Notes: generated from the sequence alone by a model not told the origin. 64,000 nt of DNA from a virus (IMGVR_UViG_2889388703_000001:37071-101070); one strand, 5' to 3'. Shown: positions 32,868 to 45,160, counted from the first letter of the stretch. Made by a program: numbers and translations.

Positions 32868-32939
32868 TTCTTTCTTTTTTAAAGGTTAATTTTATCTGTC
32901 TTTTTACTGTTGAAACAAAGATTTAAAAACTATTCGCCA

Positions 32940-35597: not shown

Positions 35598-35715
35598 TGC
35601 AAATATATAGTAATAGTATATATATTACAACTTAAACAATAAATAAGTGATATATATTAACATCATTTAAGTGAAGTATTAGTTTATATATTAAAATCAA
35701 TGCCTAATTTTGCTT
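35598..35715. promoter_or_regulatory. divergent promoters with TATATATTA operator-like repeats
   Basis: TATATTTG (-) at 35600-35607; TAATTTTG (+) at 35705-35712; three TATATATTA copies between. Confidence 0.55.
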
Positions 35716-35742
35716 CAAATTAAATAAACCTATACGTTATAT

Positions 35743-36021
35743 ATGAATTACAGAATAAAAGAAATATGTGATTTGAAAGGAATAAAAGTAAAATCCATAA
35801 TAGATAAAGTAGGAATAAGCCTTCCTGCATTATACAACATCGTAAATGGAAAGATGTCTCCTAAAATGGAAACGCTTGAAAAAATAGCAGAAGCCCTTGA
35901 GGTTCCCATGTGGCAACTCTTTGCCAGCCCGGAAGAAGTGCGTAAAGAATCAGGTGCAAGCGTCTGCCCTTATTGCGGTGGCTTGCTCGATGTGGAAGTC
36001 AATCTGAGAAAGAAGAGCTAA
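35743..36021 (+). CDS. XRE-family HTH regulator with zinc ribbon
   Basis: RIKEIC...GISLPALYNIVNG..SP.METLEKIAEALEV; CPYCG. Confidence 0.85.
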   Translation: MNYRIKEICDLKGIKVKSIIDKVGISLPALYNIVNGKMSPKMETLEKIAEALEVPMWQLFASPEEVRKESGASVCPYCGGLLDVEVNLRKKS

Positions 36022-42329: not shown

Positions 42330-42728
42330 TTATTCCATCTCTTCCGTATTATCCTTAAAAAGAGCGGCAATAGCTTTTACCACATCGTAGAAACCGCATC
42401 CGCTAAGGCCGGCAGCCAGTCCGTAAATAAGCGTTCCCCACCATTGGTATCCTTCGAGCAGAGGAGTAAGCTGAAGCGCCCATGCCAGCACGCACACCAC
42501 CATACCTACCGCCACGCTCACACCGATTTTTGCGAGCTTGCTTTCTGAAATGGCAGGAATGACTTTCAGAATCTGTGTCACGATGGCCGAAATAAGTGCT
42601 ACGATTCCGGTAAACGTGCCCAGGTCGATTACGAATCCGGCAGTAGAAGGTTCAGAGGTTACAGCTCCCTGTGCGAAAACGGTCACTGCAGAGATCAGCA
42701 TTGCAAACATTAAAATCATCTTTTTCAT
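42330..42728 (-). CDS. holin-like multi-TM protein
   Basis: Signal-like N-terminus plus three TM helices; GLAAGLSGCGFYD. Confidence 0.7.
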   Translation of the reverse strand: MKKMILMFAMLISAVTVFAQGAVTSEPSTAGFVIDLGTFTGIVALISAIVTQILKVIPAISESKLAKIGVSVAVGMVVCVLAWALQLTPLLEGYQWWGTLIYGLAAGLSGCGFYDVVKAIAALFKDNTEEME

Positions 42729-42771
42729 TTTGTCGTCGTTTTTAGTTAAACATTTGGTTTTAGTTGCAATA

Positions 42772-42813
42772 CAAAGTTACGAAGAGCACATTGGAGAATG
42801 AAGGACAAAAAAA
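42772..42813 (-). promoter_or_regulatory. late promoter motif, copy 3 (lysis operon)
   Basis: TTTTTTGTCCTTCA-N19-TAACTTTG. Confidence 0.8.
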
Positions 42814-42831
42814 CGACGGTTTCTCGGCGGA

Positions 42832-42919
42832 CAAAAACAAGAAAGGAGACAATCGCTTGTCTCCTTTCTGTGTTGATAAAACTCTCATCGAAGAAGGGAA
42901 TCCCTGTTTTCCCTATCAC
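42832..42919 (-). ncRNA. candidate sRNA 1
   Basis: TAATTTAG -7-like box at 42931-42924; 13-bp terminator stem 42840-42869 with U-rich tail; no substantial ORF. Confidence 0.4.
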
Positions 42920-43004
42920 GCCGCTAAATTACAAAAAATATTTATATCCGAATAAAATGGGTATGTTTTTTTGATAATTGAATGCTTATTTGCATTTTGA
43001 AACA

Positions 43005-43080
43005 ATAAAAAGAAGGACGGATGCGCAACACTTTGCTCCGCCCTTCAAGCCAAATAAAACAAACCTGCAATTAGGTTTAT
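43005..43080 (-). ncRNA. candidate sRNA 2, complementary to the recombinase 5' UTR
   Basis: TATATTTG box at 43094-43087; terminator 43012-43046 plus U5; 43048-43066 repeats 43148-43166 (18/19). Confidence 0.5.
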
Positions 43081-43169
43081 TTATTACAAATATAACTATT
43101 TCTTTTACAGATATTGCTTTTTATGTAATTTTTTTCTAACTTGTGATAGCCAAATAAAATAAACCTTCT

Positions 43170-44309
43170 ATGAACAAAATCAAGTATTCTATCTGCGTCA
43201 AAGAATTTGATTCAGGTATGTTCAGCGTATATGTGCGCTGCGAACAGTTCGGTAAAAGTATCTTAATTGATACAAACGTACATGTGTTTCACGATGAATG
43301 GGATGGTGAAAACGGACTTATTATCCGTAACCCAAATGCAAGGAAACTTAATCTGTTTATCCGTAAAACGCTTTATCAGCTTGAAGAGTATGAGCTTGAT
43401 TACGACGGAGAGTTTACACTTTCAAAGCTGAAGGAAATATGGGATGGGCGTGAGTCATCTAATGACTTCTATTCGATGATGGAATATCAGATAGAACACC
43501 GCGATATTCGCGAAGGAACAAAAGGAATACACCGGCGTGTGCTAAAGCATCTCAGGAAATTCTGTAAAGAATGTTCAGTTTCCGATATTACGGAAGATTA
43601 TGCAAAGGGATTTATACGCTATATGCGTGAAGCCGGTCTGAATCAAACTACAATAGGTATGCAGATACATGTGCTTAGGTGTTATTATAATATTGCCAGG
43701 AAATTGTTTGGCAACAAGGTCCCTTCCGGTAGTTTCGACTTTTATCATGAAAAACTTTCAGACCGTCTGAAATATAAAATGAAGTCGCTAACTGACGATG
43801 ATATTCGTAAAATTGAAAATTACATAGCACGTACCGACACTCCATCACGATTCATTGTTACACTTGACAGATTCCTTTTTATGGCTTACACCGGAGCAAG
43901 AATATCAGACTTTGCTTCATTCTCCCCGAAAAATTTCACCATAGAAAATGGGAAAATGTGGCTTACCTATACTTCCATAAAGACAAATACAGGCGTTAGG
44001 ATACCTATTTCTTCTATATTCGACGGAAGAGCAGAGCAGATAATAAATAAATATCTTTACAGGCTTGATGATTTTTTCGGTATAAAAAAGGAATTGTTCA
44101 ATGCCAGATTAAAAACTGCTATAAAACATGCAGGTATAGATAAGAATGTTTCAGCTCATGTGGCTCGACATACTTGTGCGTCAAGACTTGTAAACAAAGA
44201 TGTTCCTGTTACTACAATACAAAAGGTAATAGGTCATAGAAGCTTAAAAATGACAATGGTATATGCACAGACAAGTGAAAGCACTCTGATACGACAACTG
44301 TCTATTTAA
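43170..44309 (+). CDS. tyrosine recombinase (probable DNA invertase)
   Basis: YTGARISD, HVARHT, IGHRS and MVYA catalytic motifs; arm-binding/SAM-like N-terminus; adjacent to IR-flanked segment. Confidence 0.9.
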   Translation: MNKIKYSICVKEFDSGMFSVYVRCEQFGKSILIDTNVHVFHDEWDGENGLIIRNPNARKLNLFIRKTLYQLEEYELDYDGEFTLSKLKEIWDGRESSNDFYSMMEYQIEHRDIREGTKGIHRRVLKHLRKFCKECSVSDITEDYAKGFIRYMREAGLNQTTIGMQIHVLRCYYNIARKLFGNKVPSGSFDFYHEKLSDRLKYKMKSLTDDDIRKIENYIARTDTPSRFIVTLDRFLFMAYTGARISDFASFSPKNFTIENGKMWLTYTSIKTNTGVRIPISSIFDGRAEQIINKYLYRLDDFFGIKKELFNARLKTAIKHAGIDKNVSAHVARHTCASRLVNKDVPVTTIQKVIGHRSLKMTMVYAQTSESTLIRQLSI

Positions 44310-44312
44310 TTA

Positions 44313-44361
44313 GAACAAAAGAAAAGTGAAGATTATTTTTATCTTCACTTTCCTTTTGTTC
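44313..44361 (+). terminator. hairpin after the recombinase, insulating the silent cassette
   Basis: GAACAAAAGAAAAGTGAAGAT...ATCTTCACTTTCCTTTTGTTC. Confidence 0.65.
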
Positions 44362-44362
44362 A

Positions 44363-44773
44363 GTGGGAGGACTTATATGGAATATAGATATAAAACGAGC
44401 TTTCGGAAGAAACTCTGTAGGGAAAGGATATATATGTCAACTATTTACGTTTAAAGGTTCATACGGGTATTCTTCTATAATTTTTAGAACAGTATTAGGT
44501 GGGTATTATGGCTCACAAATAACGAGAAGTGTCACAATTACATGCACTGCAAATGGTGCTTTTAAAATTGAAGGTAATGGCAGTGATACAACAAATGCCG
44601 GACTTAGTTTATTTTATAATAAAAATGATGACGGCATAACATTCTATGTTGGAGGAAATAAATCTTCTCTTATCACACCATTTTCATGCGAAATTCTACA
44701 ATATGACGGTAATGTTAGCATACAAAATAAAATTATTGAGAGTGATACTACAAGTTTAACACCTTTAATATAG
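44363..44773 (+). CDS. silent alternative C-terminal cassette of the tail-tip protein
   Basis: Frame begins exactly at the IR (VGGLIWNID...); no ATG start or leader. Confidence 0.75.
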   Translation: MGGLIWNIDIKRAFGRNSVGKGYICQLFTFKGSYGYSSIIFRTVLGGYYGSQITRSVTITCTANGAFKIEGNGSDTTNAGLSLFYNKNDDGITFYVGGNKSSLITPFSCEILQYDGNVSIQNKIIESDTTSLTPLI

Positions 44774-44779
44774 GATTTT

Positions 44780-44801
44780 TTCCACCTCGGCTGAGGTGGA
44801 A
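44780..44801. terminator. hairpin between the two convergent cassettes
   Basis: TTCCACCTC-ggct-GAGGTGGAA. Confidence 0.7.
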
Positions 44802-44815
44802 GGAATATTATACCT

Positions 44816-45160
44816 TTATACCCATCTACCCCATGCAGATCCTGAATTTATTCTAACCAACTTATTACCTTTTGTATCATAAAAACGCTGAATTCTATAT
44901 CCGTATGCCAAATTAATGTCTACAAACAATACTCCGGTTGAACTTCCTGGTATATTATCATTTCCTGCTCCAACGGAGTATATTCCTGCTTCCAAGTCAT
45001 CTATAGTTTGACTTGGAGACACAGTCCCACCTTTGGGGAAGCACCAGTCTTTAGATGCTAAACCGTTCTTCGTTGAGGTGGCCACTCCAATAAGTCCTCC
45101 CACAACTGATATTATCTCCGGATTTTGAATCGCTTCCTTTAAACTTTTTTTCTGTATCAT
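44816..45160 (-). CDS. tail-tip/receptor-binding protein, expressed variant (knob-like C-terminus)
   Basis: Start MIQKKSLKEA; IR inside the gene; GIYSV..NIP...GVLFV...IQRFY...W..W; last gene of the tail operon. Confidence 0.7.
   Translation of the reverse strand: MIQKKSLKEAIQNPEIISVVGGLIGVATSTKNGLASKDWCFPKGGTVSPSQTIDDLEAGIYSVGAGNDNIPGSSTGVLFVDINLAYGYRIQRFYDTKGNKLVRINSGSAWGRWV

Follow-up and report, generated by a model that had tools for sequence, protein, structure and literature searches.

Gut Bacteroidales phages owe their host range to tail-fibre switching, and a short intergenic region raises the question of how such a phage might restrain the enzyme that performs it. The region lies within the 64,000-nt stretch of DNA analysed here (the window), which makes up the right-hand 64 kb of a 101-kb virus record in IMG/VR (linear, estimated to be 93% complete). 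In the 441-bp gap between a minus-strand holin gene and a plus-strand recombinase gene, the nucleotides just ahead of the recombinase start codon are found a second time, inside what looks like a small divergent transcription unit. An earlier note on this DNA had taken the unit for a small RNA that could pair with the recombinase leader, and had named arm-type or operator DNA sites as the alternative. The issue is thus whether the duplicated segment works as RNA or as DNA, and to what end.

The record carries genes for a tape-measure protein, tail proteins, a head protease, a holin and an endolysin, as expected of a tailed phage. Its relatives come from human-gut metagenomes and from Bacteroides and Phocaeicola assemblies, and its source is a gut Bacteroidales phage; a blastn search against a phage database gave no match for the window. 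The recombinase is the sole PF00589 gene of the 101-kb record (E = 1.5e-22). The features of the locus are collected in Table 1.

Table 1. Features of the recombinase locus and its surroundings (positions counted from the first nucleotide of the window).
Feature	Position	Strand	Remarks
Endolysin gene	41031-40459	-	Same strand as the small RNA unit, downstream of it
Holin gene	42728-42330	-	Same strand as the small RNA unit, downstream of it
TAACTTTG box	42780-42773	-	Separate box ahead of the holin gene; from sequence
Predicted small RNA, ~75 nt	43007..43081	-	Motif-predicted TSS about 5-6 nt past the box; 3' end U5; from fold
Intrinsic terminator	43007..43046	-	GC stem 43046-43012 and U5 43011-43007
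Single-stranded linker, 10 nt	43047..43056	-	Likely seed; unpaired in the MFE fold; predicted to pair with the first bases of the recombinase mRNA
Repeat copy 1, AGCCAAATAAAACAAACCT	43048..43066	+	DNA template of the anti-leader
5' hairpin	43057..43082	-	5' arm is a mimic of the mRNA leader; 3' arm contributes to the anti-leader
-7 promoter box TATATTTG of the small RNA gene	43087..43094	-	From sequence; equivalent perfect TAnnTTTG box in 36/36 module-bearing distinct upstream sequences
Predicted recombinase promoter, -7-like box TAACTTGT	43137..43144	+	Imperfect; from motif
Repeat copy 2, AGCCAAATAAAATAAACCT	43148..43166	+	Nucleotides 1-19 of the predicted recombinase 5' UTR (21-22 nt); putative target site
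Tyrosine recombinase gene, 379 aa	43170..44309	+	Domains Arm-DNA-bind_5, SAM_5, Phage_integrase
21-7-21 hairpin	44313..44361	+	Straight after the recombinase stop; probably the recombinase terminator
Inverted-repeat site ATAAGTCCTCCCAC, proximal	44363..44376	-	54 nt past the recombinase stop
Inverted-repeat site ATAAGTCCTCCCAC, distal	45090..45103	+	Within the last ORF of the tail operon

The earlier note had called the enzyme an invertase, a label that its surroundings back: here and in most relatives, the gene for the tyrosine-recombinase domain adjoins cassettes flanked by inverted repeats. The perfect 14-bp repeat ATAAGTCCTCCCAC has exactly two occurrences, which are inverted and flank two convergent cassettes (44363-45103), and 34 of 43 relative loci have a site downstream of the recombinase. 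Most site-bearing relatives carry the forward site +31 to +87 past the stop codon and the inverted copy 576-1260 nt beyond it; some loci have three to four sites, and in a branch of the recombinase family at 31% identity the same type of site stands directly beside the gene. Between near-identical phages, collinearity extends to the first site, past which the cassettes differ, and several contigs end ~78 nt past the recombinase stop. Oppositely oriented isoforms of one cassette were not seen among the contigs. Judged by this arrangement, the enzyme is most likely a shufflon-type invertase acting on the tip of the tail fibre, and the adjacent tail-fibre cassette would be the segment that it inverts. 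Homology among relatives extends as far as the hairpin that follows the recombinase stop, and one metatranscriptome contig (run X13, n=1) ends within this hairpin with a fold-back and adapter sequence, which could reflect a transcript 3' end or an assembly artefact.

Upstream of the recombinase, the gap contains the signals of a compact minus-strand gene. The box from which the earlier note had started, TATATTTG, is present as the reverse complement of 43087-43094 and corresponds to the Bacteroides -7 consensus TAnnTTTG, and both the sequence and its fold place a GC stem with a U5 tail at the end of the ~75-nt non-coding unit proposed there. The minus strand folds with an energy of -27.9 kcal/mol (z = -3.8 against shuffles). 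The direct repeat also reads as had been described: its copies match at 18 of 19 positions and stand exactly 100 bp apart, copy 2 ends 3 nt ahead of the recombinase ATG, and the lone C/T mismatch would become a G-U pair in a duplex of small RNA and mRNA. To this description we add a third copy of the motif, inverted and located at 43073-43086, which makes up the 5' arm of the hairpin. A search of Rfam 15 gave no window match at gathering thresholds; the best matches by E-value in 42700-43250 reached 12-23 bits, against thresholds of 41-97.

The repeat is not a product of chance, since its leader-versus-upstream match (score 16) exceeds the maximum of 13 reached in 300 first-order Markov simulations of the intergenic region (mean 7.5, sd 1.4), since the 18-mer with up to three mismatches occurs 4 times in the window versus 0.22 expected, and since the corresponding match in six homologous loci devoid of the module is only 6-7, which is chance level. 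Matches to the seed motif with three mismatches also lie at 35714-35731 (plus strand) and 32883-32900 (minus strand), just upstream of ORF starts at 35743 and 32867; neither is among the top targets predicted by cofold ddG.

Recombinase homologues of 40-100% identity, collected from viral, genome and metagenome contigs, provided 42 distinct upstream sequences from lineages that are not all independent. The module is kept in 36 of these 42 regions, with its elements in a constant minus-strand order: a perfect TAnnTTTG box comes first, then, after a 5-nt spacer, a 7-16 bp hairpin; an open 8-12 nt linker separates this from a second, GC-rich hairpin, which a U run follows. About twenty sequence variants of this layout occur across the related phages. 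The sequences of the hairpin and the terminator are wholly replaced between lineages, while both structures are always kept; the hairpin varies freely in its loop (3-5 nt) and stem length, and MFE folds leave the linker unpaired in every lineage.

Which strand this structure serves can be read from the imperfections of its stems. As these are not alignable by sequence, RNAalifold on a MAFFT alignment of all lineages returned 0 pairs, and each sequence was instead folded separately, with stems counted in a strand-neutral way as ungapped inverted repeats with an equal penalty for all mismatches. (A covariance model of the TGCAT-type subfamily reached some distant lineages only, with weak E-values, and missed the window; its alignment was not used for pair counts.) Transition mismatches inside the hairpin become G-U pairs on the minus strand in 7 cases and on the plus strand in 0, and the corresponding numbers for the terminator are 11 and 1, giving 18 versus 1 for both stems pooled. 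In agreement, the minus-strand fold is at least as stable as the plus-strand fold (within 0.2 kcal/mol) in every lineage. This asymmetry points to selection acting at the RNA level on the minus strand; a DNA palindrome bound by a protein would not give rise to it. Together, the conserved layout, the strand asymmetry and the covariation of the repeat copies described below support the earlier proposal of a transcribed minus-strand small RNA, and we infer from these comparative patterns that a ~75-nt RNA is made. Assembled contigs from four metatranscriptome runs contain several variants of the module in RNA libraries from wastewater and animal gut, although assemblies of this kind cannot show strand, ends or level.

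We also considered that the hairpin might be the core site or attP of the recombinase, and the enzyme a plain prophage integrase. This idea had first been prompted by the arm domain and by tRNA genes that three relatives carry 400-800 nt upstream of the recombinase (Pro and Pro in L100:666-852, Pro in L195:1007-1082, Cys and Lys in L203:871-1030), which are ambiguous between phage-borne genes and host attachment sites. It was dropped, as the loop lengths (3-5 nt), the G-U asymmetry and the downstream inverted sites, which are conserved, all speak against it.

The module belongs to the recombinase and not to its left neighbour, as judged from how the sequences are arranged across lineages. The left neighbours vary and include an HTH gene, tRNA genes and other DNA. 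Conversely, other phages share the holin-side flank of the window and continue into a recombinase of 51% identity that has its own RNA and leader pair, the sequence switching at the terminator tail. One locus (L179:1320-1500) is a hybrid that joins a window-type left flank and terminator to a hairpin, seed and leader of the type seen in L178, both repeat copies being L178-type; it documents recombination inside the module. On the minus strand of the window, a second strong terminator-like hairpin of 13 bp (42869-42840) separates the small RNA terminator from the holin promoter box; it is part of the left flank common to window-type loci.

The covariation of the two copies in related phages, which the earlier note had put forward as a check, is extensive. 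At least 12 different seeds exist, among them GCCAAATAAAA, GCCAATTAAAAAT, GCACTAAAATAA, TGCATCTAATAAT, TGCTAAGTAAATA and TACTTATTATGTG, and the copies change together: in every module-bearing lineage, the bases just ahead of the recombinase ATG recur beside the terminator of the small unit. The complementarity to the recombinase leader extends over 18 of 19 nt in the window and elsewhere over 11-20 nt, depending on the lineage. Differences between the copies amount to two G-U, two A-C and two transversions, with no bias towards changes that preserve wobble pairing.

The position of copy 2 is equally regular. It starts 19-25 nt before the ATG across lineages, and in 25 of 25 distinct promoters a TAnnTTnn box is followed, after exactly 4 nt, by the repeat core, 17-22 nt ahead of the ATG. 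The repeat thus lies where the recombinase mRNA is predicted to begin. The resulting 5' UTR would measure 17-22 nt (with motif-predicted TSSs), close to the modal 5' UTR of 23 nt in B. thetaiotaomicron (PMC7366714), and in the window no nucleotide of it is predicted to be paired. Of the 25 recombinase promoters, 2 fit the full consensus and 23 are imperfect, versus an RNA promoter that is consensus in all lineages; such a combination fits a regulator made in excess of its target. The -7 boxes of the two genes are ~42 bp apart.

Predicted pairing energies single out the same target. Because energies of whole-RNA duplexes are misleading here (the GC-rich terminator pairs with random GC-rich DNA), we used cofold ddG, which averages -19.2 kcal/mol for cognate pairs of RNA and leader (range -13.7 to -24.7) and -7.0 kcal/mol for non-cognate pairs (sd 4.8). 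Among the 381 ORF starts of the 101-kb phage, the recombinase start region is the best predicted target, with a ddG of -17.4 against -10.0 for the next and a mean of -3.7 (sd 2.2), in line with the pairing that the earlier note had proposed. The window and L178 encode recombinases that are 100% identical and have seeds that differ after nt 11; cross-pairing between them is weaker (-11.3 and -8.0) than cognate pairing (-18.4 and -17.1).

On these grounds, we propose, with a probability of about 0.7, that the small RNA and the recombinase leader form a regulatory pair in which the RNA represses the recombinase and keeps tail-fibre inversion rare. The two genes would be transcribed divergently from back-to-back promoters, the small RNA from a perfect Bacteroides sigma-ABfr -7 box and the recombinase from an imperfect one. 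Linker and hairpin 3' arm together are complementary to +1 to +19 of the unstructured 21-22 nt recombinase 5' UTR. Pairing would begin between the open ~10-nt linker and the first bases of the mRNA, then invade the 3' arm of the hairpin and displace the leader-mimicking 5' arm, resulting in a 19-bp duplex that ends at position -4, 3 nt ahead of the AUG. Since initiation in Bacteroidales relies on an open A/U-rich leader, without Shine-Dalgarno pairing, such a duplex would be expected to block ribosome loading, and it may also expose the recombinase mRNA to decay. A strong constitutive RNA promoter facing a weak recombinase promoter would set a threshold and bring about multicopy inhibition as the phage genome is amplified, so that inversion would stay rare and insensitive to phage copy number. 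In several lineages the pairing runs from +1 no further than +12 of the UTR and leaves the last 7-8 nt before the AUG free, which makes a translational block less certain there.

The main competitor of this proposal at the DNA level is the alternative of the earlier note, according to which the repeats are operator or arm-type sites, one lying over the recombinase +1 and the other, palindromic, 100 bp upstream, for the N-terminal arm domain of the recombinase or another regulator, with the small transcript being incidental. The recombinase does bear an Arm-DNA-bind_5 domain, a site at +1 occupies the classic location of an operator, copy 1 and its inverted partner make a palindrome, and many lineages share the bases with which the repeat begins (GCC, GCA). 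We nevertheless find this improbable. The loci L024 and L193 share the same seed although their recombinases are 52% identical (53% over the N-terminal 95 residues), and the identical recombinases of the window and L178 face seeds that diverge past nt 11, so that seeds and recombinase N-domain are decoupled. The spacing of the copies ranges over 88-117 bp without helical phasing, and further copies are found neither near the inverted-repeat sites (44363-44376 and 45090-45103) nor elsewhere in the window. Binding sites would leave the constant consensus promoter and terminator around copy 1 unexplained, and they do not predict palindrome imperfections that are G-U on one strand only, nor freely varying loops of 3-5 nt and stems of 7-16 bp. 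The alternative is thereby weakened, chiefly for the arm domain of the recombinase itself and less so for a different DNA-binding regulator; the part of it that stands is that covariation of the copies is equally expected of two sites for one shared binding protein.

A second group of explanations accepts pairing of the RNA with the leader and departs from our proposal in its outcome, which would be protection of the mRNA 5' end and raised expression, or else competition between back-to-back promoters. FasX protects the 5' end of ska mRNA in this way and raises expression. The predicted duplex takes in the very first nucleotide of the mRNA, pairing stops 7-8 nt short of the AUG in several lineages, and the proximity of the two -7 boxes suits promoter competition. 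However, the window duplex reaches -4, which is within the ribosome footprint, the contrast between a consensus RNA promoter and a mostly imperfect recombinase promoter fits an excess repressor, and promoter competition alone has no need of a complementary RNA. We therefore judge repression to be likelier than either outcome, and both of them together to be quite unlikely. Far less plausible still is that a late or lysis transcript starts here and that the short unit is its terminated leader, comparable to lambda pR', 6S RNA and tR', with an antiterminator permitting read-through into the holin and endolysin genes. These genes do lie downstream on the same strand, and the hairpin at 42869-42840 would supply a second terminator. 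Yet the unit travels with the recombinase and not with the lysis genes: left neighbours change with the lineage, and an identical holin-side flank occurs with a different pair of RNA and recombinase, the terminator tail being the boundary. Moreover, the holin gene is preceded by its own TAACTTTG box, and complementarity to the recombinase leader would go unexplained. As the main role of the unit, a leader of the lysis operon resembling lambda 6S was rejected for the reason that the unit travels with the recombinase.

Several relatives depart from the common layout. In L047 (1270-1503), the recombinase promoter and leader with copy 2 are kept, and unrelated DNA takes the place of the whole region upstream of about -88, RNA gene included; this locus is a natural loss variant of the RNA gene. 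A relative at 60% identity (L097:1200-1503) has a divergent HTH gene, repressor-like, and two GTGAYATTATAWTATCAC-like boxes instead of the RNA module, an arrangement that looks like protein-based alternative control of the same recombinase. Three loci with recombinases of 44-47% identity (L213:1300-1503, L217 and L042) have no divergent RNA gene; in these, a consensus promoter on the plus strand drives a 5' UTR, structured and ~105 nt long, in which one hairpin loop (TGCAGAGTT) is complementary to AACTCTGCA, present twice just ahead of the ATG. This leader may be a cis-acting version of the same control.

If the small RNA represses the recombinase as proposed, it would be a phage-encoded regulatory RNA in a phylum whose small RNA biology is young, working without Hfq or Shine-Dalgarno pairing. 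The matched pairs of seed and leader, at least 12 in number and in some cases attached to identical recombinases, amount to a natural series of compensatory mutations, which makes the mechanism directly testable by reporters; the same pairs could serve as orthogonal RNA regulators in Bacteroides engineering. A more speculative extension is that the pairs define orthogonal specificity groups, within which phages of the same seed would silence each other's invertases in trans, a "switch immunity" akin to the heteroimmunity of P1/P7 c4 and to plasmid incompatibility. We put this forward tentatively and consider it unlikely. Were it true, phages with the same invertase and different seeds, such as the window and L178 types, would regulate switching independently, and the frequent swapping of seeds, including the L179 hybrid, would reflect diversifying selection on tail-fibre locking during co-infection or in polylysogens.

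Full-text literature searches revealed no tyrosine invertase or integrase, of phage or Bacteroides, with a described RNA regulator, and the small RNA has no known Rfam family or described equivalent in that literature. Its parts do resemble those of known systems. The closest analogy is IS10/Tn10, in which the stable small RNA-OUT, made from the stronger promoter, pairs with the 5' end and start region of the transposase mRNA (RNA-IN), resulting in scarce enzyme and multicopy inhibition. The predicted phage RNA would likewise be small and folded and come from the stronger promoter, and it is complementary to the predicted 5' end of the mRNA for its own recombination enzyme. Unlike RNA-OUT, which is an overlapping cis-antisense RNA, the phage units diverge without overlap, and their complementarity stems from a duplicated segment of 11-19 nt located ~100 bp away. 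The enzyme also differs, being a tyrosine recombinase, as does the host, since Bacteroidales possess neither Hfq nor Shine-Dalgarno-led initiation.

Complementarity through short repeated elements, without overlap, is a property of the phage small RNAs P1/P7 c4 and P4 CI, in which seed differences lead to heteroimmunity. The phage module shares this property, with its at least 12 seeds and with the different seeds of the window and L178 despite identical recombinases. The c4 and CI RNAs, however, are processed from a transcript that carries their targets and control anti-repressor or replication genes, whereas the phage RNA is predicted to have its own divergent consensus promoter and terminator and to target a recombinase.

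Among host RNAs, GibS and other intergenic small RNAs of Bacteroides combine a sigma-ABfr promoter, a Rho-independent terminator and an open seed, and act at the start regions of short A/U-rich leaders (PMC7366714). The phage unit is predicted to have the same type of promoter, a terminator and an open seed region; it differs from GibS in being phage-borne, in having a single adjacent target and much longer complementarity, and in lacking any relation by sequence or Rfam family. The putative target, finally, resembles R64 Rci and the Tsr-type invertases of Bacteroides, as it is a tyrosine recombinase beside inverted-repeat-flanked cassettes of the kind by which a surface or tail protein exchanges its C-terminus.
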